From: a virus
Lineage: Duplodnaviria > Caudoviricetes
DNA: 64,000 nt
Strand: one strand, 5' to 3'
IMG/VR virus record: IMGVR_UViG_3300027969_000041
This document shows positions 1 through 15,335 of the stretch, one piece after another (position 1 is the stretch's first letter; every line of letters starts with the position of its first letter). The notes below the pieces were generated by a model. The model was not told where the DNA came from and ran no database searches. It was given only the letters and a program-made list of their open reading frames with translations. The position numbers were made by a program, and so were the translations under genes.

Positions 1-2
1 AC

Positions 3-176
3 TATATACACATATTCAAGTATACAGATTCAGCATGTGCTTATGAGGTATTCACTAGCAGTATAGCGGCAGGTGATTACTTATTAATAGAACCAGACAG
101 TCAGCATTATCGTGTAGTAATAGAAGGTGATACTGCTTGGATGCCTATATATTGCCGGCCTAGTCCTTTCCTATAA
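3..176 (+). CDS. 3' end of a hypothetical protein (partial, runs off window start)
   Basis: Open frame from window edge to TAA 174-176 (YIHIFKYTDSACAYEVF...CRPSPFL); not in ORF track. Confidence 0.4.
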   Translation, partial: YIHIFKYTDSACAYEVFTSSIAAGDYLLIEPDSQHYRVVIEGDTAWMPIYCRPSPFL

Positions 177-245
177 TACTATTAGTGTATTAAGGCGGTT
201 CAAACCATTATCAATTGCTGTATAGAGGCGGGACAGAACCCGCCC

Positions 246-268
246 AAACCCGTTTTATCAACGGGTTT
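246..268. terminator. Perfect 9-bp hairpin (AAACCCGTT-ttatc-AACGGGTTT), possible terminator or cruciform beside the DnaA boxes
   Basis: Inverted repeat read directly from the sequence. Confidence 0.5.
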
Positions 269-274
269 ATATTA

Positions 275-398
275 TGTGGATAAAGCTGTGGATAACTTTG
301 CTTAGGGGCAATGTGAATATCCTGTGCATAACTTTATCTACAGCCCCTTAATCTCTCGCCCAAAAAGTTATCCACAGCTTATACATCAGTTATCCACA
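275..398. promoter_or_regulatory. Cluster of DnaA boxes
   Basis: Perfect TTATCCACA at 275-283(-), 287-295(-), 368-376(+), 390-398(+); TTATGCACA at 323-331(-); near matches at 312-320(-), 334-342(+), 379-387(+). Confidence 0.8.
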
Positions 399-561
399 GC
401 TGAAAACGTGCGCAGCCCCGCCGTCCATCCCCACTATGTTCGAACATGACAGTATTATAACACGTTTCGGGCACAGTGTCAAACGGGCTAGCAAAGACCC
501 TGCTGGCATTGTGGGTATTTTTTTGAGTTGACGTTGTCGCCAAAGTGCGTTATAATACGCT

Positions 562-885
562 ATGATGAAAACAAAACGAACTGCCCGTAAAGACTGCAAC
601 TACGTTATCTACGTAGCCGAGCACAATGGGTCTGCTTACATTGGGCTCACACGTAAGGGAACTGTAAGCATAGCCCGAGCTGTCAAAGAACGGTGGCGTA
701 AGCATATCTCACGTGCAAAGCATGAGGATCGTGCGTGGGAACTGTACAAGTACATCAAATCGGGCAACTGGGACGGATGGACTCATACAGTACTAGACGT
801 CATACGGGGCCGTGCTGAAGCTTATGCATACGAGCGTGAGCTGGTGAAGCATATGGAGCCCGAGCTGAATGACCAGTACCTTTGA
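562..885 (+). CDS. GIY-YIG family nuclease (catalytic domain only)
   Basis: YVIY-x8-YIGLT motif, downstream R (ERWRKH), E (YEREL) and terminal LN; ATG only 5 nt after -10 box. Confidence 0.7.
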   Translation: MMKTKRTARKDCNYVIYVAEHNGSAYIGLTRKGTVSIARAVKERWRKHISRAKHEDRAWELYKYIKSGNWDGWTHTVLDVIRGRAEAYAYERELVKHMEPELNDQYL

Positions 886-952
886 AGGGTTATTGACACA
901 CTCTTCAACAGGTGCTATAATACACACATCAACAACGAAACAGGAGCGAACC

Positions 953-1438
953 ATGTCAAAGAGTCTGATACTGATGAGAGATGTAATCTGCATTTATCAT
1001 CCGCGATTTCAAGTCAGTAAAGATCTTCGTGCGTATGGCATGGAAGCTCCTGATATATTCAACATAGAGCGATTGGTTGAAGAGAGCTTGGCTGCTGTGG
1101 GCCCTTACCGATTTGTGGACGAAGAAGGCTATGACTTCACCGACTTCAGCGACAGCAAGACCACCACAATCAATGCCAACACACGAGTGGGCACAATCAG
1201 CAGTGTGGAAACAAAGATTGGGGCCCTGCGTATCACAGCATACAATCCATTCAAACAGTCAGCTGACTACTTCTACGTCAGCAAGAGAGACATGAAGTAT
1301 GTCAAGAGTCCATGCTATGGCAACAATGATCACAAAGAGCGTATCTTGTTCAAATACAGCTCCAGGAGCGATGCTTACGGCATGTTTGAAGACTACAGGG
1401 TCAAATCGTTTGAGGAACTGGCCCACTCAGCCAGTTGA
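953..1438 (+). CDS. Hypothetical protein, possible PD-(D/E)xK nuclease-like fold
   Basis: Start reassigned to ATG 953 after promoter 893 and AGGAGC; YDFTDFSDSKT resembles D...D-x-K. Confidence 0.55.
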   Translation: MSKSLILMRDVICIYHPRFQVSKDLRAYGMEAPDIFNIERLVEESLAAVGPYRFVDEEGYDFTDFSDSKTTTINANTRVGTISSVETKIGALRITAYNPFKQSADYFYVSKRDMKYVKSPCYGNNDHKERILFKYSSRSDAYGMFEDYRVKSFEELAHSAS

Positions 1439-1494
1439 CACGGGTGCCGTTTGGCGCTATAATACACACATCAACAACGAAACAGGAGCGACGG

Positions 1495-1698
1495 ATGTTT
1501 AGTTCAAATGCACAAGCAGAGTTCAAATGCCTGCTTAAGACCTTCTCCACTGCCAAACGAGCTGAGATGGACACTTGGGCTTTCTCAGCTGGCTACATGG
1601 AGAGCTTGGCGGACTCTATGTTCTATTACTTGCCCAAGCGGGAGCAAAAGGCCTTTCTCAAACAGATGCAAGCCGAAGTTGACAAGATTGCGGCTTGA
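1495..1698 (+). CDS. Early hypothetical protein
   Basis: ATG 1495 after promoter 1435 and AGGAGC. Confidence 0.75.
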   Translation: MFSSNAQAEFKCLLKTFSTAKRAEMDTWAFSAGYMESLADSMFYYLPKREQKAFLKQMQAEVDKIAA

Positions 1699-1736
1699 CT
1701 GTATAATACACACATGAACAACAAAGGAGCGAAACG

Positions 1737-2024
1737 ATGAAGTTTACACAAGCAACATGGACAGAGGCAAACGGCACTCACCTGCAGGGCTATATTAATG
1801 CAACTTACGACCAGTTGGTTGCACGTTTTGGACAACCTGATGAGGGCGGTGACAAGACTACAGTTGAGTGGGTGCTGGCCTTTGCGGATGGCACAATAGC
1901 AACAATCTACGATTGGAAAGAGTATGAGACGCCCATGTACGCTTATGATTGGCACATTGGTGGCAAGAGCAAAACGGCTGTCTCTCGAGTAACACAAGCA
2001 TTGAAACAAGGAGCAACTGTATGA
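1737..2024 (+). CDS. Early hypothetical protein
   Basis: Promoter 1679, AGGAGC RBS; LQGYI...ATIYDWK motif. Confidence 0.8.
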   Translation: MKFTQATWTEANGTHLQGYINATYDQLVARFGQPDEGGDKTTVEWVLAFADGTIATIYDWKEYETPMYAYDWHIGGKSKTAVSRVTQALKQGATV

Positions 2025-2302
2025 AGCAAGACTACACCATGTATATCTACAAGCGGGATGCACGTACCAAAACGGGCGAACGACTGTACAGTACTACTGT
2101 ATGGGCAGACCGTACTGAAGAAGGCATGCGACGTGAGTGCAACGAACTCTATGATCTGTACCCTGCAACCAAAGGTTGGCGTTTTGAGTACGTGCCCTCA
2201 ATGAAGACTGTACGCAACTTGATGTCGGGCAAGGACATTCAAATCCCACATGACACTCCTCGCTCATGTGATCCCTCTAGCGAACTCTACTGGAGCATGT
2301 GA
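2021..2302 (+). CDS. Early hypothetical protein
   Basis: AGGAGC then ATG 2021 overlapping upstream stop (ATGA). Confidence 0.75.
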   Translation: MKQDYTMYIYKRDARTKTGERLYSTTVWADRTEEGMRRECNELYDLYPATKGWRFEYVPSMKTVRNLMSGKDIQIPHDTPRSCDPSSELYWSM

Positions 2303-2466
2303 TGAAGAACGAGATTGAACGTTTGAACTTTGTCATATGGGCCAAGACTCGCTTCCCGGGCTTTACCACAAACGCCCAGCAATATGCCAAGGCCAATCGG
2401 GCATGGCGGGCTGTGGCACGTAAAGACCCTATGGTTGACAAGGTTATTAGAACCTGCTATAATTAA
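2302..2466 (+). CDS. Small early hypothetical protein (54 aa, MKNEIERLNFVIWAK...)
   Basis: GGAG RBS, TGATG coupling with upstream stop; below ORF-track cutoff. Confidence 0.6.
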   Translation: MKNEIERLNFVIWAKTRFPGFTTNAQQYAKANRAWRAVARKDPMVDKVIRTCYN

Positions 2467-2497
2467 GGCTACAGTAAACAACTAAGGAGCGAAACTT

Positions 2498-2704
2498 ATG
2501 CGTAAAGAGACTAACAGACTGTTGGACATGATTGAAGAGGGCTTGATTGATCCTCATGCGGTGGCAGACATGTGCCTTGCTTACATGAGCGAGGACGATG
2601 TGGCAGACATGATGCGGGCTAACGACCTGCTTGAGGAAGATGACGAGGATGACGGACAGCCCGACGAAGCCCAGGAGTGGGAATCGTTTGACGCTGACTG
2701 CTAA
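2498..2704 (+). CDS. Acidic early hypothetical protein
   Basis: Promoter 2435, AAGGAGC RBS. Confidence 0.75.
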   Translation: MRKETNRLLDMIEEGLIDPHAVADMCLAYMSEDDVADMMRANDLLEEDDEDDGQPDEAQEWESFDADC

Positions 2705-2714
2705 GGAGCACACT

Positions 2715-3095
2715 ATGACACGCTATTACGACGAACTGGCTGCTTACGAACGCAACGGATTTGATATCATTGTGGACAAATCATATGAAGACATGGATCC
2801 CAAAGACTGTTTTGATGACGACTGCTTCAACATCAAAGAAATGTATTCCGACATCGAGTGCGGGAACCTTGACTGGTTCATGCTCCGTGTCCGAGTTATG
2901 GTTGAGAACATCGAACTCAGTTCAGAGTTCTTGGGCGGATGCTTATACAAAGACGCCCGAGAAGTACTTACTGACGGGACTGCCGCAGACCTCATCGACC
3001 AAGCGATGGTAACAGCTAAGAAGGATGTCTATAGACTGTATAAGAAGTTCCAGGACATCAGCTGGGAACTTGATGCTGAAGGTTGTAATGTATGA
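2715..3095 (+). CDS. Early hypothetical protein
   Basis: AAGGAGC then ATG 2715 (in frame with track ORF 2631). Confidence 0.75.
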   Translation: MTRYYDELAAYERNGFDIIVDKSYEDMDPKDCFDDDCFNIKEMYSDIECGNLDWFMLRVRVMVENIELSSEFLGGCLYKDAREVLTDGTAADLIDQAMVTAKKDVYRLYKKFQDISWELDAEGCNV

Positions 3096-3328
3096 GCTAT
3101 AGACACATAGACGAAGTCATACAATGGGTAGGGACTGCATTCATCTTGGCAATGTATGCATTAATGAATTTCTTTCCAGAGTTCCGTGTCTACACTATTA
3201 TAACGGGACTCGGGGGTGCAGTCTGTTTCTTTGCGTGGGCCTACCGTGTGGCAAATAAACAACAGATGATTATCAACGGCGTAGCAATAGCCCTATGTGT
3301 GATAGGGTTATACAAAGCGTGGGGTTGA
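3092..3328 (+). CDS. Small membrane protein (about 3 TM segments)
   Basis: Three hydrophobic stretches in 78 aa; ATGA overlap. Confidence 0.7.
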   Translation: MSYRHIDEVIQWVGTAFILAMYALMNFFPEFRVYTIITGLGGAVCFFAWAYRVANKQQMIINGVAIALCVIGLYKAWG

Positions 3329-3359
3329 CAAAGTGGTAAAACCTTGCTATAATTAGCAC

Positions 3360-3586
3360 ATGGACAGTTAGAAAAGAGTTAAAGGTTACCTACACCGTTA
3401 GGGTCTTTAGGAGAGGAGCACAGGGGCCGCCCTACGCAATCCTAGAGAGCATGAAGGCTAGTGATACAGGCAACTGTATACGAGTTTGGCAGACGGGGTA
3501 TGTAGGCTGTAATGACGAAGGCAGATGCCTAGCAGACGGTGCTAGCGTCTAGTCCGGAGTTCCTTTACTCTTTTCTAACTGTCCAT
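3360..3586 (+). ncRNA. Unclassified structured ncRNA of about 227 nt
   Basis: Own promoter (3325/3348) with expected TSS at about 3360; no RBS-led ORF; 5' end 3360-3385 pairs with 3562-3586 (25 bp, one bulge); internal stems including a GCAA tetraloop hairpin. Confidence 0.75.
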
Positions 3587-3647
3587 TAGGGGTTGACAAT
3601 ATGGTAAAACCATGTTATAATATACACTTACACACTAAGGAGCAAAG

Positions 3648-3902
3648 ATGATCACAGCAGACACTATCGAAGTCCTAACTGCATATTCACCACAATACTT
3701 GACCAAAGCCGCACAGCTTGCAGGCTACAAGGGTCCAAACTTCACAGCGTGTAAGTTCCTGGGCATCACCAACGGTGGCCAGTTCTGCTACATGGCAGTC
3801 TTTCCAGTCAAAGGCGGCACCGACAGCACCAAAGTGTTCTTAAGCTATGACCATGATGAGGACAGGGTTATTGCAGACTACCAGTTGACAGAATGGGCAT
3901 AA
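3648..3902 (+). CDS. Early hypothetical protein
   Basis: Promoter 3593, AAGGAGC RBS. Confidence 0.8.
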   Translation: MITADTIEVLTAYSPQYLTKAAQLAGYKGPNFTACKFLGITNGGQFCYMAVFPVKGGTDSTKVFLSYDHDEDRVIADYQLTEWA

Positions 3903-3944
3903 GCTGTTATAATACATACATCAACAACGCACTAAGGAGCAACT

Positions 3945-4211
3945 ATGCAAGCACTAGCAAAGTTTATCGAGCAGAAGAATCACTGGAACAGTTTCTTTAA
4001 AGGCGAGCAGTATGAGATCACTACTGCCAAGGGTCGTCAGCGTGTTGCAGACATGATCGATGCCGCACTGAGCCCTGAGAACCTTACCTGCGATGGCGAA
4101 CTGCCCCGCACAGAAGTTAATCGTCGCTACAAAGAGTTGATGACTGCCGCCAAGCAACTGCGGAAGTTAGACCCTACTGTTAAGTTCTACGAATACGACA
4201 CGGAGATCTAA
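3945..4211 (+). CDS. Early hypothetical protein
   Basis: Promoter 3885, AAGGAGC; LSPENLTCDGEL motif. Confidence 0.8.
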   Translation: MQALAKFIEQKNHWNSFFKGEQYEITTAKGRQRVADMIDAALSPENLTCDGELPRTEVNRRYKELMTAAKQLRKLDPTVKFYEYDTEI

Positions 4212-4212
4212 G

Positions 4213-4374
4213 ATGAAAACAGCACACCCTAAACAAGAGCTGATAGATCGCGTTATCTATCAAATACAATGTGACTTGGAAGACAAAGACACCACCTCCA
4301 TCGAAGAGATGCTGTGGAAACTTAACGAAGAAACCCTTCGTGCCTACTTGCCCGAAGCTGACCCATTTATCTAA
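4213..4374 (+). CDS. Small early hypothetical protein (53 aa, MKTAHPKQELIDRV...)
   Basis: GGAG upstream, fills the gap exactly; below ORF-track cutoff. Confidence 0.6.
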   Translation: MKTAHPKQELIDRVIYQIQCDLEDKDTTSIEEMLWKLNEETLRAYLPEADPFI

Positions 4375-4384
4375 GGAGAATAGA

Positions 4385-4960
4385 ATGCCTAATTGGTGCA
4401 ACAACACATTGACGCTGGAACACGAAGACCCAGCAATGATCGCCCGTGCTAAGGCTGCGTTCCTCAATGGTCGCTTGCTGGCGGAGTTCATTCCTATTCC
4501 GGCAGACTTGAAGATCGTAGCAGGATGTGTAGGTGATCCTGTAGAACAGGCCAAGTTGGTAGAACAGACTGAGTTGAACCGAGTCACACACGGCTACGGC
4601 AACTGGTATGACTTCTGTGTCAACGAATGGGGTACCAAGTGGGATGTGGGTGGGGACGATGGTGTCCTCAACGACATCGAAAGCGGTATCATTGTCAGCT
4701 TCGACAGTGCCTGGGCCCCTCCTACTAATGCCTATGAGAAACTGCATGAGATGGGCTTTAAGATCCTTGCTATGTATTACGAGCCCGGCATGGCCTTTGC
4801 AGGTGTTTGGGAAGACGGCATTGATGACTACTACGAGTATGGCGGCCTAGACAGTGCAGGCATTGCTGAAGAACTGCCGTCAGCACTTGACGAGGCGTTT
4901 GGCATCAGTGAGAGTGTGGCGGAGTGGGAAGCTGAGAACGCAGAGGAAGAGGAAGAATAA
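4385..4960 (+). CDS. DUF1281/YubB-like ferredoxin-fold protein
   Basis: AAGGAG then MPNWCNN start; NWYDFC...WGTKWDV, FDSAWAPP, YYEPGMAFAG motifs. Confidence 0.7.
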   Translation: MPNWCNNTLTLEHEDPAMIARAKAAFLNGRLLAEFIPIPADLKIVAGCVGDPVEQAKLVEQTELNRVTHGYGNWYDFCVNEWGTKWDVGGDDGVLNDIESGIIVSFDSAWAPPTNAYEKLHEMGFKILAMYYEPGMAFAGVWEDGIDDYYEYGGLDSAGIAEELPSALDEAFGISESVAEWEAENAEEEEE

Positions 4961-4964
4961 CCCT

Positions 4965-4982
4965 AAGCCCGGAAGGGCTTTT
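4965..4982 (+). terminator. Intrinsic terminator-like hairpin
   Basis: AAGCCC-ggaa-GGGCTT plus TT directly after stop. Confidence 0.55.
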
Positions 4983-5041
4983 GGTTGCTCGTTTTGTAAA
5001 AGTTTGCTATAATACATACTTGTTTAACAGGAGCACACACT

Positions 5042-5485
5042 ATGCAAGCACTTAACGCACAAACTGTACAGCAGTTTATTGAATATACAGAAGACGGCTT
5101 TAATTTTGAGATAGTTGTTGATAAAACATTTACTACAGCAGGCGACGGCTTGTGGAGTAGCATTAGCAAAGCAGTATTTGTTGAAAGTATTAGTATGTTT
5201 ATTAGTACAGTTAATGATGAAGGCGATTTTTACGACGGCGATTTAGCTATTAACTATACAAACGCTACATGGGATAATGATGTAGACGGATTAATTTATA
5301 CTGACAGAGCATTTATTGCACAAGTACATGCATTTTTAATTAATGCGGGCTTTGATAATGAAGCTGTTAATGCTATTAGTTATAGCGAACAAGGAATGCA
5401 AGACGACGAGCGTGTTAGTTGCGACGCTAACGAGTTTGCAGATTATTTGCGTAATATTAGCAACGCTAAAATTACTGTTGTGTAA
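5042..5485 (+). CDS. Early hypothetical protein, proline-free, encoded without any TC/CC dinucleotide
   Basis: Promoter 4985/5008, AGGAGC RBS; DGLIYTD and YSEQGMQ motifs; about 36% GC. Confidence 0.85.
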   Translation: MQALNAQTVQQFIEYTEDGFNFEIVVDKTFTTAGDGLWSSISKAVFVESISMFISTVNDEGDFYDGDLAINYTNATWDNDVDGLIYTDRAFIAQVHAFLINAGFDNEAVNAISYSEQGMQDDERVSCDANEFADYLRNISNAKITVV

Positions 5486-5494
5486 AAACAACAC

Positions 5495-5521
5495 AAAGAC
5501 CCTACACAGCGTAGGGTCTTT
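5495..5521 (+). terminator. Stem-loop between gene end and next promoter
   Basis: AAAGACCCTA-cacagcg-TAGGGTCTTT, perfect 10-bp stem. Confidence 0.65.
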
Positions 5522-5579
5522 GGTTGACAGAATGGTAAAACCGCTGTATAATTAGCACATACACTAAAAAGGAGCAACT

Positions 5580-5840
5580 ATGTTAGATCTAAGCAGAGTC
5601 TACAAAGTTTACAACGGCCGGGCCAACTCTTGTTGCTGTGGCTGTTCGGGCAAGTATGCCACAGCGTTGGTCCACAAGGCCTATGCTGACCAAGACAGGG
5701 GCTATGTTGTTGACGATGTCAACGATGAGACTGTACGCAAGATCGTAGGCAAGATCCTAAGTGCCGCTGATCCCAAGGACGAGGGCGATCATGTCCACGC
5801 AACTGTAGGCAAAAGATTGTTGGTCGCTTACTACAAATAA
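5580..5840 (+). CDS. Early hypothetical protein with Cys cluster (SCCCGCSG)
   Basis: Promoter 5524, AAGGAGC RBS. Confidence 0.8.
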   Translation: MLDLSRVYKVYNGRANSCCCGCSGKYATALVHKAYADQDRGYVVDDVNDETVRKIVGKILSAADPKDEGDHVHATVGKRLLVAYYK

Positions 5841-5906
5841 TGGTTGACAACATGGTAAAACCATGTTATAATTAACACTTACACAGCAACACACTAGGAG
5901 CACAAA

Positions 5907-6389
5907 ATGGGAACACGAAGCACTATTGCATTGGAATTCGCAGACAAGTCAGTTGAGCAGGTCTACTGCCACTGGGACGGCTACTTGGAGCACAACGGTC
6001 AACTCTTGTTGAAACATTATAGCAACCCTTTCATCTTGCGTGACTTGATCGACTTGGGAGACATTAGCTCGCTCAAGCCCACAGTTGGTACCAAGCACGC
6101 CTTTAGTCACTTTGACACAGAGATGAAGCAAGAGGAATACGATGCTCTCTACAGAGATATGACTACCTTCTACGGACGCGATCGCGGCGAGACAGGTTGC
6201 GAGTCTAAGAAGTTTGTTGACTTCCAGGACTACCTGGCTCATCACCAGTACGAGGAATACGAGTACATCCTGCGTCAAGTCAACGGGGAGGCTGTTTGGT
6301 ATGTTAAGTGCCACGACAACGAGTATGTTACATTGAAGTCTGCAATCGCAGACGAACAAGATCAAATTGCACAAGAGGAGACAGTATGA
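5907..6389 (+). CDS. Early hypothetical protein
   Basis: Promoter 5844, AGGAGC; MGTRS...VYCHWDGY motif typical of phage early hypotheticals. Confidence 0.8.
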   Translation: MGTRSTIALEFADKSVEQVYCHWDGYLEHNGQLLLKHYSNPFILRDLIDLGDISSLKPTVGTKHAFSHFDTEMKQEEYDALYRDMTTFYGRDRGETGCESKKFVDFQDYLAHHQYEEYEYILRQVNGEAVWYVKCHDNEYVTLKSAIADEQDQIAQEETV

Positions 6390-6568
6390 GCAAGATGGCA
6401 GAACTGAGTTACGATATGGAGCAACTGTACATTGAAGGCATGAGTGCCAAACAGATTGCTCAAGAGTTGATGTGCCCAATAGAATTGGTATTGGGCTTTT
6501 TGGAAGAACTGGGTGTGGCAGATTCGCCACAGGAGGTGTTTGATCCATTCGAAACAATCAACTCTTAA
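6386..6568 (+). CDS. Early hypothetical protein, possible HTH-like
   Basis: GAGGAG then ATG 6386; GMSAKQIAQELMCP. Confidence 0.65.
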   Translation: MSKMAELSYDMEQLYIEGMSAKQIAQELMCPIELVLGFLEELGVADSPQEVFDPFETINS

Positions 6569-6663
6569 CCCAAAAAACGGTTGACACCACCGTCCAAAGG
6601 TGTTACAATTAATTAATGCGAAAAAGTTCGCAGGTACACACAGACTAACACAAAGGAAATTTT

Positions 6664-7068
6664 ATGTCTAAATCTTTTACACATGCTGGCGTTTCTAAAC
6701 TGGACGGCGAGTTCAAAGTCCGTTTCGCCAATGACTCACTTCGTACTAAGGTCTTGATCAAGAACGGTCACACTGACATCGACATCATCGAACTCAAACA
6801 CGCTATGACCAAGGAAGATGCTGTTGCATTCCTGATCAGCATTGACTTCGACAACGGCAACGCCGCTGTGCGAGCTGCACTAGAAGTAGAAGTTGACAAG
6901 CGTTCACCTAAAGCTGCTTCTAAGGACAAGCCTAAGAAGGAAGCTAAGAAGCCCAAGAAGGCTCCTGCCACTAAGCCTACCTTGGAAGCTATCCGCGCCA
7001 AGGCTCCTACTAAGTCCAAGGCTGAGATTGTTGCTCAGTTGGCTGACTTGGAAGACGCACCTTACTGA
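6664..7068 (+). CDS. Hypothetical protein with Lys/Ala/Pro-rich C-terminal tail
   Basis: Promoter 6581/6604, AAAGGA RBS; strongly biased codons. Confidence 0.8.
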   Translation: MSKSFTHAGVSKLDGEFKVRFANDSLRTKVLIKNGHTDIDIIELKHAMTKEDAVAFLISIDFDNGNAAVRAALEVEVDKRSPKAASKDKPKKEAKKPKKAPATKPTLEAIRAKAPTKSKAEIVAQLADLEDAPY

Positions 7069-7146
7069 TCCCCTGCAGTGTGCGTAGCGGCAGTGCCAAT
7101 AAGTCCGCTTCGATAAAACCTACTGCGGGGTATTCAAGGAAACACT

Positions 7147-7338
7147 ATGAGCGAACTAATTAAAATCATTCTTATTGTTGTACTGGTCATCTTACTGCTG
7201 ATCTTTGGGCCGATTGCAACCATCTGGGCACTCAATACATTATTCCCAGTACTGGCTATCCCTTACACCTTTGACACCTGGTGTGCAATAGTTCTTGTAG
7301 GTGCCTTCCTTAGAGCAAATGTTACGGTGAAAAAATGA
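7147..7338 (+). CDS. Small membrane protein
   Basis: AAGGA RBS; two hydrophobic segments. Confidence 0.7.
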   Translation: MSELIKIILIVVLVILLLIFGPIATIWALNTLFPVLAIPYTFDTWCAIVLVGAFLRANVTVKK

Positions 7339-7553
7339 GTAGACTACAATTACACGGAAGACAATGGGTTGTGTTCAACGCCCAAAACAAAGAACATCGT
7401 CAATGGTTTGCCGAGTTCAATCGTACAGCCAAATGGGGCAACTGTCCTGTTCGCTTTGTGGTCAACGATGATCACGGTGATCTGATCACACAGATCCAAC
7501 GAGAGTTGATTGCTCACTATGTGGGCAAAGAATTTGGCAAATTTAATCATTGA
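7335..7553 (+). CDS. Early hypothetical protein
   Basis: ATGA overlap with upstream gene. Confidence 0.7.
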   Translation: MSRLQLHGRQWVVFNAQNKEHRQWFAEFNRTAKWGNCPVRFVVNDDHGDLITQIQRELIAHYVGKEFGKFNH

Positions 7554-7622
7554 CCTAGATTAGATATAGTGTTAAACTAGTATCAACTGCTAACACAGTA
7601 TAAAACAAAAAGGAAAACTAAA

Positions 7623-7895
7623 ATGGTTTATTCAATCAACAAGGGTACAAAGACCCACAAGTTGTTCACCGCATTAAAGAACGGTGAGAAGGTCACAGCT
7701 AGCGAAGCATCTAAGCGTTTTGGCATCGGCAACATCGCCGCTGAAGCAAGCCGCATTCGTCAAGCTGGTTTTGCAGTCTATGCGAACAGCCGCACCGCTG
7801 GCAACGGCGTTCAAGTTACCGAGTACGAAATCGGTCAACCAAGCCGTGCAATCGTAGCCGCTGGCTACCGCGCAATGCAACTCGGCCTAGTCTAA
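7623..7895 (+). CDS. Winged helix-turn-helix-like DNA-binding protein
   Basis: Own promoter (TTGACC/TGnTAAACT); VTASEASKRFGIGNIAAEASRIRQAG helix pattern followed by a beta hairpin. Confidence 0.6.
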   Translation: MVYSINKGTKTHKLFTALKNGEKVTASEASKRFGIGNIAAEASRIRQAGFAVYANSRTAGNGVQVTEYEIGQPSRAIVAAGYRAMQLGLV

Positions 7896-8062
7896 GAGTT
7901 CGCTCCGAAGTCCTGGGGGTAGTGTCCCAGGCAACCCCCCGAACCCCGCCCATCGTGAGATGCGTGGGGTTCACCTTTGTTGTAAAAATACAACACCAAA
8001 AGGGGTTGACACTTTGGTAAAACCTCTGTATAATAGAGACTTACACTAACAAGGAGCCGAGC

Positions 8063-8275
8063 ATGGGATATCGCGTAATGGACACCGTAGACATGATGCG
8101 TGACAAGTATGGTCCCCGCAAGGGACTGGAAGGTCCGTTCAACTTCTCCGGTCGTGTTCTGTACTACGATGTCAAGGAAGGTCTGTACTACGACCCGACC
8201 ACAGACTTCTATGTTGAGAAGTCTGAGATGGACATGATCAACTCATCCTTTATGGAGCGTTTCAAGAATGTATGA
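8063..8275 (+). CDS. Early hypothetical protein
   Basis: Promoter 8006, AAGGAGC; GLEGPF...VLYYDVKEGLYYDP. Confidence 0.8.
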   Translation: MGYRVMDTVDMMRDKYGPRKGLEGPFNFSGRVLYYDVKEGLYYDPTTDFYVEKSEMDMINSSFMERFKNV

Positions 8276-8465
8276 TGTGACCATCAACTGTGCCAACGAA
8301 CTGAATCCTCTAGAGGTATTGATCGTTGCCGACCACTATGAGAAGCGTGGGATCAAGTCCTACACCATGACCAAGGGCAATGATTGCATCTGGTGCTACC
8401 GTGGCAACATCAACGAATATTTCATCTTCCGTGAAGGAAAATTGGTTGACATCCAGGTCGATTGA
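8268..8465 (+). CDS. Early hypothetical protein
   Basis: GGAG upstream, overlaps previous stop. Confidence 0.7.
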   Translation: MYDVTINCANELNPLEVLIVADHYEKRGIKSYTMTKGNDCIWCYRGNINEYFIFREGKLVDIQVD

Positions 8466-8508
8466 TCGTATAATACATACATAGACAGCAACACACTAGG
8501 AGCACATA

Positions 8509-8874
8509 ATGGAAACAATGACACGCCGGGAAGAACTAGAGTGCATCTTCTGGGATATGTACAAGGATGCCTACGGTGTCCGCCCACGTGGTGTCGACAC
8601 ATCTGCTTGGGATGAGGCTACCTTTGAAGCCGAGTTCAACTATATGCAGGAGCTGATTGCCAAGAACGACCGTGAGCGCAAGATCGCCGAGGACGAGGCA
8701 GCACATGCCTTTGAGATGCGAATGTTGAGCATCATAGCCTGCGGTGCTCATAATCGTGCTATGGCCCTGCGTTGGATCCACGAGGCAGAAGGTAGCAACG
8801 GTGACGACGAGTACCTGTGCTATCTGTTGGGATTGCCCTACCGCTATTTTGTGGTTGACAAGGCCACAGTTTGA
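8509..8874 (+). CDS. Early hypothetical protein
   Basis: Promoter 8446, AGGAGC; DMYKDAYGVRPR motif. Confidence 0.8.
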   Translation: METMTRREELECIFWDMYKDAYGVRPRGVDTSAWDEATFEAEFNYMQELIAKNDRERKIAEDEAAHAFEMRMLSIIACGAHNRAMALRWIHEAEGSNGDDEYLCYLLGLPYRYFVVDKATV

Positions 8875-8907
8875 CAGTATAATACACACATAGACACTAA
8901 GGAGCAC

Positions 8908-9132
8908 ATGATGATTAGAGAGCATATTCAAATGGAAACCCGCCACGGTAGCCCATACGATCGCGGCATGGCAGACAGCTACTACCGTAGAGACTACAAC
9001 CCACACTATTTTAAGGGTGATTCTTACAGTTCAGAGCGTGTCACTCTTAAGGATATGACACCTGATGAGATTGTGGCATACACCGCAGGCTACGAGGACA
9101 ACGAAGACGCCGGCGATCACAAGGAGTGGTAA
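8908..9132 (+). CDS. Early hypothetical protein
   Basis: Promoter 8855, AAGGAGC; RHGSPYDRGMADSYY motif. Confidence 0.8.
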   Translation: MMIREHIQMETRHGSPYDRGMADSYYRRDYNPHYFKGDSYSSERVTLKDMTPDEIVAYTAGYEDNEDAGDHKEW

Positions 9133-9133
9133 G

Positions 9134-9292
9134 ATGAGTACATGGGAATTCGCAGAGTTCCGCATTGGACGACTGTTCCATTGCAACGGCAACGACTGGA
9201 TCAAACAATCAACCCGCACCGCAAGGATGCTGAGCACGGGTAGAGTCTTCTACTTCCGTAAGAACGAAATCATTAGGGCAATCGCATGGTAA
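9134..9292 (+). CDS. Small early hypothetical protein
   Basis: AAGGAG then ATG 9134. Confidence 0.65.
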   Translation: MSTWEFAEFRIGRLFHCNGNDWIKQSTRTARMLSTGRVFYFRKNEIIRAIAW

Positions 9293-9480
9293 TCCTACAA
9301 GAGACCACACAGTGGAGCGACAGCAACGGCGCCAACCACATCTATGTCTTTAAGAAGAAGCCCGAAGGTCGGAGTGCCGAGGCTGTGGCTTATTTGCCAC
9401 AAGGGACAGATCGTGTGATCAAGTTCCGCACACCACTAAAACTCGACCTAAAAGGAAGGACTTTCCGGGCGGTTGACTAA
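9286..9480 (+). CDS. Early hypothetical protein
   Basis: Overlaps previous gene; ends inside next -35 box. Confidence 0.65.
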   Translation: MVILQETTQWSDSNGANHIYVFKKKPEGRSAEAVAYLPQGTDRVIKFRTPLKLDLKGRTFRAVD

Positions 9481-9526
9481 TTGGTAAAACCTTGCTATAA
9501 TACACTATCGCAACAAGGAGCACACT

Positions 9527-9607
9527 ATGTCAGATTTTGAAGCAGGCTGTATTTTGGTTTCAGTGATCATTGCCGCTAAATTTTACATCCTCATCAGATA
9601 CTTCTAA
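9527..9607 (+). CDS. 26-aa hydrophobic microprotein (MSDFEAGCILVSVIIAAKFYILIRYF)
   Basis: Promoter 9473/9496 and AAGGAGC RBS; not in ORF track. Confidence 0.65.
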   Translation: MSDFEAGCILVSVIIAAKFYILIRYF

Positions 9608-9617
9608 GGAGCACACT

Positions 9618-9704
9618 ATGCCACAAGCTATTATCAACCTTCTCATTATGTTGACGCCAGTATGGGTCATGCTCGTAGCAATCCTTGTAGAGGAGATCCT
9701 GTAA
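9618..9704 (+). CDS. 28-aa hydrophobic microprotein (MPQAIINLLIMLTPVWVMLVAILVEEIL)
   Basis: AAGGAGCACACTATG RBS module; stop overlaps next ATG. Confidence 0.65.
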   Translation: MPQAIINLLIMLTPVWVMLVAILVEEIL

Positions 9705-9919
9705 TGGACATCGAAATCAAATTCAAAACCGACGAACAGAGACGCATTGCAGACCTACTGTGGTCTTGCCAAAGCCAGGCAGAAGTCAATGTGGTGCTCC
9801 GTGCCTTTGGGGTGCAAGGCTACATTGTCAAAGAGATGATCTTGGCCGCTACCTACGATGACTTAGCCAATGAAGATGTGGCGTTAGCACAACACTATCT
9901 AAAACCCTACATGTTGTAG
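9704..9919 (+). CDS. Early hypothetical protein
   Basis: GAGGAG and TAATG coupling; start reassigned to 9704. Confidence 0.7.
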   Translation: MDIEIKFKTDEQRRIADLLWSCQSQAEVNVVLRAFGVQGYIVKEMILAATYDDLANEDVALAQHYLKPYML

Positions 9920-9985
9920 GGGTTCTAGTTGACATCTTTATAAGTTGAGACTATAATACATACATACACTAAAAAGGAGTTAAAA

Positions 9986-10231
9986 ATGGGTCAATACGCA
10001 AACACAGTTAACGCATACGCAATGTCTGCCGCTCGTGCTAAAGTTTACACTATGCAAAACACTTTGCAAAGTTACGGACAAACCGCTTACATGCTAAATG
10101 TAAGTAGTGCTAAGTTCCGCCGGGACATCGAAGCTAAAAAAATTAAATTTATTGCACAGCTCGAAAAAGAAAAAATTGCAAAAATGCAAGCAGAGATCGC
10201 TAGTCTGCAAGCAAAGCACAGTGTAGCATAA
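9986..10231 (+). CDS. Early hypothetical protein with C-terminal coiled coil, proline-free
   Basis: Promoter 9929, AAGGAG RBS. Confidence 0.75.
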   Translation: MGQYANTVNAYAMSAARAKVYTMQNTLQSYGQTAYMLNVSSAKFRRDIEAKKIKFIAQLEKEKIAKMQAEIASLQAKHSVA

Positions 10232-10324
10232 AAACAACGACCCTACGGGGTCTAGGGTTTTTGGTTGACAGAGTAGTAAATCGGCGTTATAATACATACA
10301 CACTAACACAAAAGGGAGCGATAG

Positions 10325-10711
10325 ATGACTAAAGTAAATTATGACCGTTTTGCCTCGTTTGACATGAACGAGTGCTGTGACCACTTTGACAGTGAGAAGC
10401 AGAGCAACTGGAAGAAGATTGGCAAGTTCATCGTAGCAGATGGACAAGAGTACCAGCACATTATGGAAACAGAGTTTGACTTTGAAGACACGGGCGATGG
10501 CGAGTATGCGGCATTTGACGCAGGCGTTAAGTATGCTCTTACTAAGATGAACATTGCATTTGAGGCGGCAGGCTTGGACTTGCAGATCTGCGAGGTAGAC
10601 CTGGTAGAGAGCATGGGCTTTGTTATGGTCCGTGCAGACGACGAGCCCGAGGACTTCGTTAAGCGGGTTCTTAAGAAGCCCGTGTTGATGGTAGAGAGCT
10701 GGATAGACTAA
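10325..10711 (+). CDS. Acidic early hypothetical protein
   Basis: Promoter 10265, GGGAGC RBS. Confidence 0.8.
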   Translation: MTKVNYDRFASFDMNECCDHFDSEKQSNWKKIGKFIVADGQEYQHIMETEFDFEDTGDGEYAAFDAGVKYALTKMNIAFEAAGLDLQICEVDLVESMGFVMVRADDEPEDFVKRVLKKPVLMVESWID

Positions 10712-10847
10712 TTGCCGGAGTGTCAGCTCCTGCCACTAGGCCCTGCAACAACTGTCCCAAGTGGACGGTATCGCCCGGGTACTTCGCAGGGGTTGACACA
10801 ATGGTTTTTCTATGTTATAATACACACATAGACACTAAGGAGCATAT

Positions 10848-10991
10848 ATGAAACAAGTACAGAGCAAATCCAGCACCGGTGGCACCACTACCGAGTTCTT
10901 CGATGAGAACGGCGTTCGCGTCAAAGTAGTCCACAGTGCCGGCAAACAGTACAGTGGCAAGATTGCACAACAAGAAGCCAAAAAGGCTTGA
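10848..10991 (+). CDS. Small early hypothetical protein (47 aa, MKQVQSKSSTGG...)
   Basis: Promoter 10793, AAGGAGC RBS; stop is inside next TTGACA; not in ORF track. Confidence 0.65.
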   Translation: MKQVQSKSSTGGTTTEFFDENGVRVKVVHSAGKQYSGKIAQQEAKKA

Positions 10992-11043
10992 CAAACCGGT
11001 AAAACCTTGTTATAATACATACTTACACACTAAGGAGCACACT

Positions 11044-11397
11044 ATGACAGCAGTCGCAACACACATCACAGAGCAGTTGGTACAAGACGCTACCAACGAA
11101 GCTCGCATCCAAGCCCATACAGCGGCCAAAGCCTTGATTGCCCAGCATGGCGATCGTGGCGCCTGCGGCTTTGCCTGGGTCAACATCTACGGTGTTCGCA
11201 GTAACAGCAAGTTGGGCAAGTGGCTACAGGCCGCAGGCTTCCGCAAAGACTACACAGGTGCATTGAGCCTGTGGAACCCCAGCCAAGCCGCAGTACAAAG
11301 CATTGACATTCTGGAAGCTGGCGCCTATGCCTACGCAGAGGTCATCAAAGCCAAGTTGGGCTTGGACAAGGTCTACGCTGGTTCAAGAATGGACTAA
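11044..11397 (+). CDS. Early hypothetical protein
   Basis: Promoter 10988, AAGGAGC; GACGFAWV motif. Confidence 0.8.
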   Translation: MTAVATHITEQLVQDATNEARIQAHTAAKALIAQHGDRGACGFAWVNIYGVRSNSKLGKWLQAAGFRKDYTGALSLWNPSQAAVQSIDILEAGAYAYAEVIKAKLGLDKVYAGSRMD

Positions 11398-11476
11398 TTA
11401 TAGAGCAGAAGGGCTTGACATACAGGCCCTTCGACTGTATAATACATACTTCAACTTAAACACCAAGGAAGCAAAA

Positions 11477-12349
11477 ATGGCTACAACAAAGACCAAAGCC
11501 CCCAGCAAGGGCACCACAGTACTAGAATTTGACACGGATGCTATCAAGCGCCGTGAAAAGGAAGTAGCCAAAGAGACTGACGGCGAGATCCTGGATCGTC
11601 TCAGCGAGCGGTTTGATATCCTCAACGAGATGACCAAAGCAGTCAAAGAAGGCAATGTCCGTGCTATGATTGTATCAGGTCCCCCAGGCGTGGGCAAGAG
11701 CCACGGTGTAGAAGCTGTACTCCAAAAGGCAGACTTGTTCAACACACTAGCAGAGCGCAAGCCCAAGTTTGAAGTTGTCAAGGGTGCCATGAGCAGTATT
11801 GGCCTCTATGCTAAGTTGTACGAGTTCGCCGCAGAAGGCAATGTTGTAGTCTTTGATGACTGCGACAGTATCCTCATGGAAGACCTAAGCCTAAACATTC
11901 TCAAGGGTGCCTTGGACAGTAGTGAGCGCAGGTTTATCAGTTGGAACACTGACAGCCGACTACTCCGTAGTGAAGGCATTCCAGATCGCTTCGAGTTCAA
12001 GGGCGCGGCTATTTTCATTACCAACATCAAGTTTGAGCACGTTAAGAGCAAGCGCCTCCGTGATCACTTGGATGCCTTGGAAAGCCGTTGCCACTACATT
12101 GATCTGCAAATGGATACGAATCGCGAGAAGATTCTGCGTATCAAGCAGGTTGTCAACGCTGGTGAGATGCTGAGCAAGTACGAGTTTGAAGAGTGTGTCA
12201 AGGACGAGATCGTTGAGTTTGTGGACGCTAATCAAGACAAGCTTCGTGAGCTGAGTCTGCGTATGGTGCTCAAGGTAGCACAATTGCGTAAGGCGTTTCC
12301 TACCACATGGAAGAGCATGGTCAAGACTACCTGTATGAAGCGAGCATGA
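11477..12349 (+). CDS. AAA+ / P-loop ATPase
   Basis: Walker A GPPGVGKS, Walker B VVFDDCD, FITN sensor, ALESRC arginine finger; promoter 11415. Confidence 0.85.
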   Translation: MATTKTKAPSKGTTVLEFDTDAIKRREKEVAKETDGEILDRLSERFDILNEMTKAVKEGNVRAMIVSGPPGVGKSHGVEAVLQKADLFNTLAERKPKFEVVKGAMSSIGLYAKLYEFAAEGNVVVFDDCDSILMEDLSLNILKGALDSSERRFISWNTDSRLLRSEGIPDRFEFKGAAIFITNIKFEHVKSKRLRDHLDALESRCHYIDLQMDTNREKILRIKQVVNAGEMLSKYEFEECVKDEIVEFVDANQDKLRELSLRMVLKVAQLRKAFPTTWKSMVKTTCMKRA

Positions 12350-12579
12350 TCACTCGCATAGTACTGTATGCAACCCTAGGGTATCTATTAGATGCTCTAG
12401 GGCAGGGTTCCGGAGACTGGGGCTTTTGGTGTGTCTTGGGCTTGTTCCTAGCCACAGACATCCTAGCCCGCAAGGAAGGACAGGATCACGGCATATGGAT
12501 AACACTGATGTTGCCCGCTGACAGGCTCGCAGAGCTTAAACAACAACTAGACACAGACATCAAGGATGCAGAACAATGA
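12346..12579 (+). CDS. Small membrane protein
   Basis: ATGA overlap; hydrophobic N-terminal half. Confidence 0.65.
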   Translation: MITRIVLYATLGYLLDALGQGSGDWGFWCVLGLFLATDILARKEGQDHGIWITLMLPADRLAELKQQLDTDIKDAEQ

Positions 12580-12842
12580 CTACAACAACTACAACCTGCA
12601 CCTACTTGGGCAACAGTACTACAGCCTGCGGCTGTACTACAGTCATGGGCAAGAGCTACTGTGCAGAGCACATATACATAGTCTACAAGCAGGGTACAGC
12701 CCGGGCCAAGCGTAAGAAGGAACTAACCACTGTGGACAAGGTACGCATGGTAGAAGAACTCATGCACGAAGCTATCGCAGAGCTGGAAGCAGAAGGCTTT
12801 GATGTCTACGGTGAAAGAGAGTTGGACCTAGACAGAGGCTGA
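12576..12842 (+). CDS. Hypothetical protein with Cys/His Zn-binding-like motif
   Basis: CTY...ACGC...YCAEH. Confidence 0.65.
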   Translation: MTTTTTTCTYLGNSTTACGCTTVMGKSYCAEHIYIVYKQGTARAKRKKELTTVDKVRMVEELMHEAIAELEAEGFDVYGERELDLDRG

Positions 12843-13034
12843 GGTCGGGGCCGGTGGGGTGGTCAGGTACAATGCAAACTACTGTACATACATACAGTAG
12901 CAAGCATGCCTTAAAAAGTCGGTGTTAGAGTAGATCACCATGGCCAGAGATCTCCAAACCCTACAATTTTTACGCAGCAATTTTTTGGCTACAGTAGACC
13001 AGATTTTGACCCACTGTATTATCACTGTGCGAGT

Positions 13035-13361: not shown

Positions 13362-13648
13362 GCTATTAGTATACACTGTGAAAAACTTCATGTCAACTAA
13401 ATTTCCATGGTTTGAAAATTTTTTTATATATTTTTTACTCTTACAAGGGGTCATTTTAATCATAGTGTAATCATACTGTGTTATACTCTATTAACTACTG
13501 TGAGAACTCACTGTTGAAAAAATCATTTTTTACCGCGTCGCGCTTCGCGCTAGTTGGCTCTTCTGCACCAAAAATCTGGTTTTATCAATATCTGGGTACT
13601 TTATTTAATTTTTAGATAAGTACGGTTATACCACCCTCGAAAGCTATC

Positions 13649-14092
13649 ATGTCACTATTACACGTTATACAGAGCCTAACTGATCCACTGTGCTCTTTAA
13701 TCACAGATGATCCCGTACGACCCGAGATCCCTCTAGAGTTTCGAGTTAGCTCATCCAGTGAGATATTTGTGTTGTTAGATGAACTCAGTTTGGCGCCCTT
13801 GGCTGCGGTCTGCTGTGCTTATAGAGATAGTATTCCCGAAAACACCGCCGATTTGATCTTACAACCCCTGGCGGCTGGTGTGGCTGTGTTTTATACTATA
13901 TGGAGTTATCAACCCGGGGCTGGACGCAGGTTGATTGTCTCTGCTCGGAATTGGATCCAGCTCAATAGAACTGAGATCACTAAATTTGTCACTTTGAGTC
14001 CGCCCACTGACATGGCCCGTGTATTCCACCTACGCAATGGTGCGGAAGTGTTTCGAGTTAACAGCGATACAGTTAACTATCTCTACCCTTGA
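13649..14092 (+). CDS. Hypothetical protein, possible GNAT-like fold
   Basis: FYTIWSYQPGAGRRLI (motif A-like) and TLSP...ARVFHLRNGA. Confidence 0.55.
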   Translation: MSLLHVIQSLTDPLCSLITDDPVRPEIPLEFRVSSSSEIFVLLDELSLAPLAAVCCAYRDSIPENTADLILQPLAAGVAVFYTIWSYQPGAGRRLIVSARNWIQLNRTEITKFVTLSPPTDMARVFHLRNGAEVFRVNSDTVNYLYP

Positions 14093-14606
14093 GCTCTACC
14101 AGTATAGACAGCAGTTCATCTAGGCCAGCTTGATAGTTCTGGCTCAGTATACGAACTGCTCGCTGACCGGTCGCGGTCCATTGTTCACAGTTACTACTGC
14201 GATCATCTACTAATATGTCACCGTTGCGGGCATGTTTGTACTTGTCCGTTGAGTAGGGTCCAAAACACAGTCTAATGCCCGGGTAGTGTTCGGCCATCCA
14301 ATCAAACTTGTCCTGAAATACCTCGGGCACTTCGTTTTTTGTGGGTATGGCCGTTAATATGCGTAGGTCCCAACCTAGTTCATTTTTGAATCTATAGGCC
14401 AAGTTGACCAGTTCATCAGCCAGGGGCATCTTGGGTAAGTGGCGATAAAAGTTCGGAACATCTACCAGCTTGTGCCAGCTGTGCTCGGGCCAGCGGCCAT
14501 TTTGTTCTGCATCTTTTTCATCGGCCTTGCTGGCGTTTAGGTAACTGCGAGCAGCCGTGTTAAAGTCGGCCAGGACGCCATCCATGTCTAGGTAAATTGT
14601 GGGCAT
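14073..14606 (-). CDS. HAD-family 5'(3')-deoxyribonucleotidase
   Basis: YLDMDGVLADF, ILTA, ILVDDR motifs. Confidence 0.85.
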   Translation of the reverse strand: MPTIYLDMDGVLADFNTAARSYLNASKADEKDAEQNGRWPEHSWHKLVDVPNFYRHLPKMPLADELVNLAYRFKNELGWDLRILTAIPTKNEVPEVFQDKFDWMAEHYPGIRLCFGPYSTDKYKHARNGDILVDDRSSNCEQWTATGQRAVRILSQNYQAGLDELLSILVELKGRDS

Positions 14607-15301
14607 TAGTTTAAACTTAATTGTTGATCGTGTAAGCGGTCAACTAGAGTATTAATACCTGCCAGGGTGTGATCATTGCGTAGCACCTTATATACTAGGT
14701 TGGCTGTGCTGAACTCACCCTGGGGTTGTTGTAACCCCAGTTTTCTATACTTACGTAACAATTGTAAACTACTTCTGCAGGTTTGTAAATCCCCAGTTTG
14801 CATGGCATGCTTGAGTACAGTGCGCCAAACCTCGGTCATTTTTTCCACTTCTTCGCTGTCAAAGTCAGGTTGGATTTGGCTGGGTTTGGTCAGCCATTTG
14901 CCATCGAGTATGCTGTAACTGCCCGCACTAACTCCCGGATGATCTTGGTCTTCTACAAACAGGCCCACGGGTATGCCAAAGATTTCTATGTCATGTTGTT
15001 CTGCATAAAGATGTCGTTTGGTATCAAACAACTCGGCTACTTCACGATCGCAGGCTATGCTACTGTAGTCTGTGATCAGGTGTAGATCGATGTCACTGTT
15101 ACTGGTGTAATTGTAGTTTACATTACTGCCCGTGATCACAATGTCTACCACTGTGAAATCAATGTCGACAAACTTTTTAAAGTCTTCTGCAATGCGTAGT
15201 AGCGCACCTTTGACCTGAGGTTTTAAATGATCGTGGTCCCATAGTTTTGGGTTCAACACCTGATTATGTTCAATGGGAGTAGAAAATTCGGTAAAGTTCA
15301 T
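14606..15301 (-). CDS. Pol-beta-superfamily nucleotidyltransferase
   Basis: ITGS-x8-SDIDLH motif and helical C-terminal part. Confidence 0.75.
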   Translation of the reverse strand: MNFTEFSTPIEHNQVLNPKLWDHDHLKPQVKGALLRIAEDFKKFVDIDFTVVDIVITGSNVNYNYTSNSDIDLHLITDYSSIACDREVAELFDTKRHLYAEQHDIEIFGIPVGLFVEDQDHPGVSAGSYSILDGKWLTKPSQIQPDFDSEEVEKMTEVWRTVLKHAMQTGDLQTCRSSLQLLRKYRKLGLQQPQGEFSTANLVYKVLRNDHTLAGINTLVDRLHDQQLSLN

Positions 15302-15335
15302 AGCTGTGTATTTATGTGGTTAAATATCATTAGTT

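Follow-up and report, generated by a model that had tools for sequence, protein, structure and literature searches.

How does an entire early transcription unit of a phage come to lack two dinucleotides on its coding strand, and what might read them? We analysed a 64,000-nucleotide stretch of a caudoviricete genome (IMG/VR record IMGVR_UViG_3300027969_000041), referred to hereafter as the window. On its + strand, positions 4991–5500 (A173 T157 G107 C73 by direct count) contain neither TC nor CC, so that each of the 73 cytosines is preceded by A or G. We refer to TC and CC jointly as YC, and to their complements GA and GG as GR. The first-pass annotation of this DNA had reported the absence of YC among about 73 cytosines and had described it as strand-specific, with ordinary GA and GG on the + strand. 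Both points hold, GA and GG being present in 32 and 13 copies, respectively.

YC is absent from the unit far beyond chance

The YC-free gap extends over 511 bp, from the TC at 4989–4990 to the CC at 5500–5501, compared with 108 bp for the second-longest such gap within the 64-kb window. Base composition alone predicts 33 YC in 4991–5500. Protein-preserving codon shuffles had been proposed as a check. When the 147-aa protein was held fixed and its synonymous codons were resampled according to the usage of 29 neighbouring early genes, we obtained a mean of 34.0 YC (s.d. 4.7) and never fewer than 18 in 20,000 trials. Permuting the open reading frame's own codons among synonymous positions produced zero YC in 0.27% of trials, and none of its 11 codons that start with C (0/11) follows a pyrimidine-ending codon, though 64% of its codons end in a pyrimidine. 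Thus, the rule acts at the level of dinucleotides and not of codons, as had been suspected. The purge is also present at codon junctions, in the 5′ untranslated region (UTR) and in spacers.

The coding consequences listed by the first-pass annotation are likewise all found: the protein has no proline, its 10 serines are all encoded by AGY, and C is never the last base of a Phe, Ile or Val codon. The proportion of cytosines that follow a pyrimidine (YC/C) ranges from 0.19 to 0.57 in the 29 other early genes of the window and is 0.38 in the neighbouring gene (4385–4960), which had been cited as an ordinary reference. The absence of YC at 4990–5500 is confirmed, far beyond chance.

Phage, habitat and relatives

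The phage of the window is a myovirus that carries T4-like genes for replication and structure. Judged by terminase, its nearest cultured relative is the Pseudomonas jumbo phage PA5oct (55% identity), whose first 50 kb contain no YC-free island. No near-identical DNA was found among cultured phages, and at the protein level only the Xanthomonas phages X1 and BUDD match (35% identity), with a copy that has normal YC. A 149-kb contig carrying a 95% identical copy of the gene was rated 44% complete, from which we estimate a genome of ~340 kb. The stretch is present in runs from 14 studies, all of them metagenomes of fresh water, lakes and rivers. Only two contigs of metagenome-assembled genomes contain the family; both come from lakes, are labelled Acidobacteria and Bacteroidetes, and are probably mis-binned phage contigs. 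We found no tRNA genes and, for an AlgH-like gene of the window, no bacterial relative.

Several other properties of the window were recorded. Its coding strands are purine-rich (0.545) on either DNA strand, at 1–13000 (+) and 14000–42000 (−), and GC is ~0.47 in the early region versus ~0.39 in the rest. Auxiliary genes in 14073–15884 and 20143–21621 encode an NT5C-like deoxypyrimidine nucleotidase, the AlgH-like DUF179 protein, a PfkB kinase, a cytidylyltransferase-like protein and a cupin; the kinase and the cytidylyltransferase-like protein together look RfaE-like, which is our own presumption. At 53247–53420, ~140 bp without YC and GR form a tandem repeat in the gene of a 1732-aa structural protein and are unrelated to the purge.

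Anatomy of the purged unit

Read from its sequence, the unit at 4985–5522 is a self-contained early cassette, with a predicted extended −10 sigma-70 promoter, a Shine–Dalgarno sequence, an acidic 147-aa protein and a putative hairpin terminator (Table 1).

Table 1 Features of the purged transcription unit and its borders (window coordinates)
Feature	Position	Strand	Details
Intrinsic terminator hairpin of the upstream normal-YC gene (4385–4960)	4965–4982	+	Sequence read; YC at 4968–4970; insulates the purged unit on its 5′ side
Promoter	4985–5013	+	Weak −35 TTGCTC at 4985–4990, 17-nt spacer, TG-extended −10 TGCTATAAT at 5005–5013
TC/CC-free stretch, 511 bp	4990–5500	+	Direct count
Discriminator and 5′ UTR	5014–5041	+	Sequence read; Shine–Dalgarno AGGAG at 5029–5033; YC-free
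Open reading frame, 147 aa, acidic, no Pro	5042–5485	+	YSEQGMQ and RVSCDA motifs conserved in the family
Terminator-like hairpin, 13-bp stem	5494–5522	+	First YC 3′ of the gene (5500, 5501, 5517), all within the stem arms

A scan for consensus promoters missed the promoter of this unit, as its −35 hexamer fits only 3 of 6 positions. Since the last upstream TC lies inside that hexamer, the purge begins within the promoter and not before it. The first-pass annotation had described a purge running from promoter to terminator hairpin. Its tie to the transcription unit stands, but the outer borders do not, given the TC in the −35 element and the three YC in the stem of the downstream hairpin. The mRNA, folded with its terminator, gave z = −3.4 relative to shuffles and is not unusually unstructured.

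In two neighbouring promoters that we inspected, a GGTAAAACC box is located 5 nt after the −35 hexamer, at 5534–5542 and 5854–5862. The spacer of the purged unit (4991–5007) lacks this box except for a degenerate version, GTAAAAG; a box-binding factor may fail to act on this unit.

Contigs from lake metagenome DNA contain joints at 4987 and 5494, the former also being found in a contig of an RNA library. Because joints fall at these two positions, the purged unit is a cassette that can be swapped among strains. In detail, 4987 is joined to 8469 (a DNA run and the RNA library) and 5494 to 7978 (the same DNA run), with short foreign linkers; strains thus exchange early genes as promoter-to-terminator cassettes. 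In three lake metatranscriptomes, considered as assembled contigs only, the neighbours were covered and the purged gene barely so; the strains there carry other cassettes.

The purge follows the transcript and few gene families

When we clustered 1402 + strand open reading frames from the loci that carry the 147-aa family, the trait proved to be a property of this family and roughly a dozen small families located next to it. YC is always normal in 26 other families, all among the 32 largest and each with at least 10 members (up to 55). In relatives, YC-free stretches reach 1.0–1.3 kb and take in several units, including intergenic promoters, and the non-coding DNA within YC-free blocks (1607 nt) contains 0 YC versus about 115 expected. 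Codon junctions in 33 non-redundant purged genes hold 10 YC, compared with 90 expected. Upstream of the genes, the interval from −12 to the ATG has 1 YC in 1043 nt across 29 purged units, versus 0.027 per nt in 239 normal units.

The limits of the blocks coincide with landmarks of transcription. Purged units of relatives use the same type of promoter (TTGACA/TTGCAT-17-TATAAT), every purged block begins at its own promoter, and YC is frequent in the promoter spacers of block-initial units (contigs L005, L007, L009, L062, L063 and L067, and the window). At the 3′ side, either the first YC is located in the terminator stem, where YC is present in 5/5 units that end at a hairpin, or the block runs on into a gene with normal YC. 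In a relative, a minus-strand unit shows the purge on the strand that is sense for that unit. The start at the −10 element, the limits at stems and 3′ ends, and the minus-strand unit tie the rule to the transcript or to the displaced coding strand, and not to a DNA segment or an absolute strand. For partly purged genes, the residual YC inside open reading frames showed an excess of predicted pairing over normal genes of 0.065 ± 0.036, which is under 2 sigma.

A separate trait of these genes concerns their start: 15/33 purged genes begin with Met-Gln (ATG CAA/CAG), versus 35/731 normal early genes.

Zero YC is maintained in diverged homologues

The 147-aa family comprises 171 metagenomic homologues; across 80 viral contigs, YC in the homologous gene varies from none to normal content. 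Whether diverged homologues are also free of YC had been proposed as a test. On the family tree, the window's own clade consists of 12 rows with 47–68% amino acid identity to the window protein, and 12/12 have 0–2 YC per 400–460 nt. Between the window gene and the members of this clade, nucleotide identity is 58–76% and a different codon is used at 21–51% of conserved residues, so zero YC is maintained rather than inherited. A second clade (clade B) combines members with normal YC (such as 26/64 and 63/137) with numerous lineages that are purged in part (4–12 YC per 340 nt, of about 70 C) and a nested subclade that is back at 0. As this zero-YC subclade is separate from the window's clade, the purge was completed at least twice.

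A YC-free paralogue of 153 aa (L074:3454–3915) groups with the window's clade on a long branch and lies one unit upstream of a 112-aa family member in the same purged block.

Selection rather than mutational decay

Extreme strand-biased C-to-T mutation had been put forward as the main alternative to selection. At polymorphic YC sites in 17 close relatives, the alternatives were YT in 18 cases, YA in 20, RC in 20 and YG in 7, which disfavours this route, as does the retention of cytosine: C content in most YC-free lineages is 0.17–0.21, close to the 0.22 of the flanks, and C-ending codons after purines are enriched in purged genes (GAC 0.80 versus 0.53; GGC 0.62 versus 0.39). An APOBEC-type C-to-T footprint, with YT-dominated loss and falling C, is therefore not what these genes display. 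YC has been avoided by any available mutational route, which is selection and not C-to-T decay.

It is hardly credible that the pattern arose without selection, through strand-biased C-to-T mutation, a recent AT-rich donor or an assembly artefact. Such an origin would be compatible with the gene of the window's sub-clade, the only one that is C-poor and T-rich (GC 0.36 versus 0.48, C 0.137 versus 0.227, T 0.313 versus 0.228). Yet other YC-free lineages have normal GC and C, YT does not dominate at variable sites, codon junctions of the non-redundant set hold far fewer YC than expected, and the trait recurs across contigs of many independent metagenomes. Decay and artefact are thus already largely refuted.

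A sister class of genes lacks GR as well as YC

On contig L083, the contig of L006, two units (12207–12758 and 13572–14434) have no TC, CC, GA or GG on either strand, even in their terminators. Their products are a 101-aa protein, whose matches to MarR/winged-helix proteins are below threshold, and a 204-aa protein devoid of D, E, G, P and W. Metagenomes contain more than 240 homologues in the family of the latter, in which the pooled content is 1% for D, 0.7% for E, 0.5% for G, 0.3% for P and 0 for W. It is because their genes lack GA and GG in addition to YC that the proteins of this second class, which are basic, do without D, E, G, P and W. Across 14 lineages of the family, YC/C and GR/G fall together, from 0.34/0.39 to 0/0.

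The doubly purged genes have long 5′ UTRs and no Shine–Dalgarno sequence, and share islands with acidic YC-only genes like that of the window. In the YC-only class, avoidable GR is mildly reduced (−6.7% at junctions, versus −2% in normal genes).

Two relatives illustrate the arrangement of such islands. In a 6.5-kb island (L098:1–6522), nearly all units are YC-free and most are also GR-free; common to them are a TTGCAT-17-TATAAT promoter and a structured 5′ UTR of 70–80 nt that is conserved and has no Shine–Dalgarno sequence. In L083:11400–14520, a long hairpin with a CACGTG core (stem TCGCACGTGC ... GCACGTGCGA) recurs about fifteen times between doubly purged units, and its copies hold almost all of the few YC and GR of that region.

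The 147-aa protein has a confident predicted fold

The protein encoded by the purged unit has a pI of 4.05, with 25 D+E against 6 K+R. AlphaFold2 predicted an alpha/beta fold with a pLDDT of 91.3. Searches of the sequence against Pfam, PHROG and PADLOC gave no match. With the predicted model, Foldseek returned a best PDB E-value of 0.5 and, in AFDB, matches to unnamed proteins only; a wide VIA-align search reached a best Z of 3.5, and the ESM Atlas yielded nothing usable. The model thus points to a well-defined fold for which these searches returned no relative of known name.

Candidate readers of YC

Our data establish the purge itself, where it begins and ends, which strand it follows, that it persists in diverged relatives and that selection produced it. 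This selection probably cleared the transcript, or its DNA twin, of words recognized by some YC reader. The first-pass annotation had proposed escape from a YC-directed RNase, nucleic-acid ADP-ribosyltransferase or single-stranded DNA cytidine deaminase, with the protein as a possible counter-defence or repair factor; of this interpretation, the dinucleotide level, the strand specificity, the link to the transcription unit and the conservation are supported. As the purge is complete in the window's clade and all proline has been lost, this would require strong selection on each single site. We considered three agents that read single strands, and rank an enzyme acting on mRNA first, Rho second and an agent acting on single-stranded DNA third.

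Our leading but tentative explanation is that the YC-free mRNA escapes a single-strand-specific enzyme that reads dinucleotides. Selection would have rewritten the transcript of the unit, amino acid content included, until no 5′-pyrimidine-C-3′ was left in its single-stranded parts, and one hit by the enzyme would be enough to disable an mRNA. A CmdT-like mRNA ADP-ribosyltransferase or an endoribonuclease could play this part, either as an abortive-infection effector of the host or as a weapon with which the phage itself shuts off the host. Purging would be limited to the few genes whose translation has to continue while the enzyme is active, which would make the 147-aa protein a candidate antidote or counter-defence factor. 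RNA as the target, the sufficiency of a single hit and this role of the protein are what we infer; consistent with the model, the purge maps to the transcript, follows the coding strand, is family-specific and results from selection and not decay. The YC in terminator stems would also fit a reader that ignores duplex RNA, and the weak pairing excess of residual YC in partly purged genes speaks against one. We know of no enzyme with YC specificity, and a scan of ~45 other proteins of the window revealed no gene for an RNase, a HEPN protein, a deaminase or an ADP-ribosyltransferase.

The closest precedent is CmdT, a GA-specific defence enzyme that acts on single-stranded but not double-stranded RNA and blocks translation (bioRxiv 10.1101/2024.02.24.581662). 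The proposed reader would resemble it in its dinucleotide specificity, its restriction to single-stranded RNA and its disabling of mRNAs, and sister genes of the same islands are without GA, GG and a Shine–Dalgarno sequence. The two differ in the word: YC is avoided here, whereas the CmdT word GA is kept in the window gene, which has 32 copies and an AGGAG Shine–Dalgarno sequence, and is missing only from the sister class of relatives. Escape by recoding was judged implausible by the authors of the CmdT study (bioRxiv 10.1101/2024.02.24.581662).

No cellular factor other than Rho is known to have precisely this specificity, and we regard Rho as an unlikely but substantial rival. An mRNA without YC cannot load Rho, and would be completed even if it is untranslated or if RNA polymerase outruns the ribosomes. 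The clefts of the Rho primary binding site bind 5′YC of nascent RNA (PMC12360218), and Rho reads ‘up to six CC or UC dinucleotides’ (PMC13323073). A Rho-driven purine bias of coding strands has been documented and proposed as a barrier to phage genes (PMC13323073). The two cases therefore have in common the words UC and CC, single-stranded sense RNA, a footprint on coding-strand composition and a proposed effect on phage expression. The sense strand of the purged unit is depleted of YC as expected for a Rho-evading transcript, with 0 YC from the −10 element to the terminator; the purge is sense-strand-specific, limited to transcripts and starts in each block from that block's own promoter; some blocks run directly into downstream genes with normal YC, fitting a factor that acts 5′ to 3′; and the coding strands of this phage are purine-rich on both DNA strands. 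However, the known footprint of Rho is a graded, genome-wide purine bias, whereas here a few genes are purged absolutely, amino acid alphabet included, and keep their C. Loading of Rho requires several YC in roughly 80 nt, and an isolated YC in an otherwise YC-free RNA ought therefore to be neutral; many lineages nevertheless stand at exactly 0 and have lost every proline. The threshold-like tolerance expected of such a reader is not seen in the window's clade, with its 0–2 YC in every member, but would fit the partly purged lineages of clade B. Moreover, purged genes keep C high through AC and GC and are not purine-rich, the purge is restricted to a few families even though Rho confronts every early gene alike, and Rho gives no reason for the equal loss of GA and GG in the sister class.

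For that last feature, an agent that acts on DNA offers the simplest account: the depletion of YC and GR is equal over the 14 lineages of the doubly purged class, amounting to an equal YC loss on both strands, and one agent that sees both strands fits this better than two RNA enzymes do. The purge might protect the displaced non-template strand, in transcription bubbles or R-loops of the most transcribed early units, from a single-strand-specific, YC-directed deaminase (APOBEC-like) or nuclease, and so avoid hypermutation or nicking. TC and CC together make up the combined target set of APOBEC3 enzymes, and T4 endonuclease IV cuts single-stranded DNA 5′ of C in TC contexts. The strand and transcript limits are the same as for the RNA models, and TC and CC are depleted on the strand exposed as single-stranded DNA, the coding strand being purged whichever DNA strand holds the gene. 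We nevertheless consider this improbable. YC is kept in the terminator stems of several purged units, where the non-template strand is equally exposed, variable sites carry no C-to-T signature, and late structural genes, which are presumably highly expressed, are unpurged; in addition, damage to the genotype of the progeny acts indirectly, and only a very high frequency of it could eliminate proline.

Protection against damage, a variant raised by the first-pass annotation, makes physical sense but is more improbable still. Here the template strand would be free of 5′-GG and 5′-GA, so that the first-expressed genes of phages in sunlit water stay transcribable; the GR set is said, by Saito and co-workers, to comprise the hot spots of one-electron guanine oxidation. 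The strand is that on which lesions would stop RNA polymerase, these phages live in lakes and rivers, and the doubly purged class would also lack TC and CC, sites of (6-4) photoproducts, on its template strand. Against this, the chance of a lesion per site is tiny in a genome of ~340 kb, and selection could presumably not outweigh the loss of Pro, or of D, E, G and W in the sister class; nor does damage give a reason why only about a dozen families are purged.

Two further candidates were rejected. If UV or adduct lesions at YC blocked RNA polymerase, the template strand would need purging, and it is the coding strand that is purged. Models based on duplex DNA, such as restriction sites or PAMs, call for avoidance that is symmetric on both strands, which is at odds with the ordinary GA and GG counts of the + strand and with the YC left in promoter spacers and flanking hairpins; local immunity would also not save the genome.

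Implications

A full-text literature search found no description of gene-limited, strand-specific dinucleotide purges in phages. Avoidance of words read by host factors is known in other forms: CpG with respect to ZAP, TC and CC with respect to APOBEC3, restriction sites in the first-injected DNA of T5 and T7, and ACA-less mRNAs with respect to MazF. Our case resembles these in that selection eliminated a short word and so put the sequence out of reach of a host factor that reads it. It differs in that known avoidance is partial and genome- or segment-wide, or concerns sites of 3–6 nt, whereas the purge described here is total, confined to single units, strand-specific and paid for in whole amino acids.

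We tentatively propose that giant aquatic phages may write the genes they need first in a ‘dialect’ without the words by which an enzyme, perhaps carried by the host or the virion, attacks single-stranded nucleic acid. The mRNAs of these genes would work while ordinary ones are disabled, and the purged proteins would be antidotes or takeover factors; for the 147-aa protein itself, a role as antidote or counter-defence factor is suggested by this reasoning. In its possible wording, the dialect would omit TC and CC and, in sister genes, also GA and GG, resulting in a 15-letter protein alphabet and no Shine–Dalgarno sequence. The purged genes also furnish naturally occurring proteins without Pro; those of the sister class additionally lack Asp, Glu, Gly and Trp. 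Should Rho prove to be the reader, such cassettes would represent an influence of Rho on gene sequence more extreme than any now known, and would supply natural Rho-invisible mRNAs for expression design. If an mRNA enzyme is the reader, a widespread and previously undescribed activity in infected bacteria would act on two-letter words of single-stranded nucleic acid, and phages would be able to escape it by recoding whole genes, the very route that the CmdT authors held implausible. YC-free sense strands would then serve as a computational marker of the genes most needed at the start of infection, and thus provide a list of candidate counter-defence proteins.
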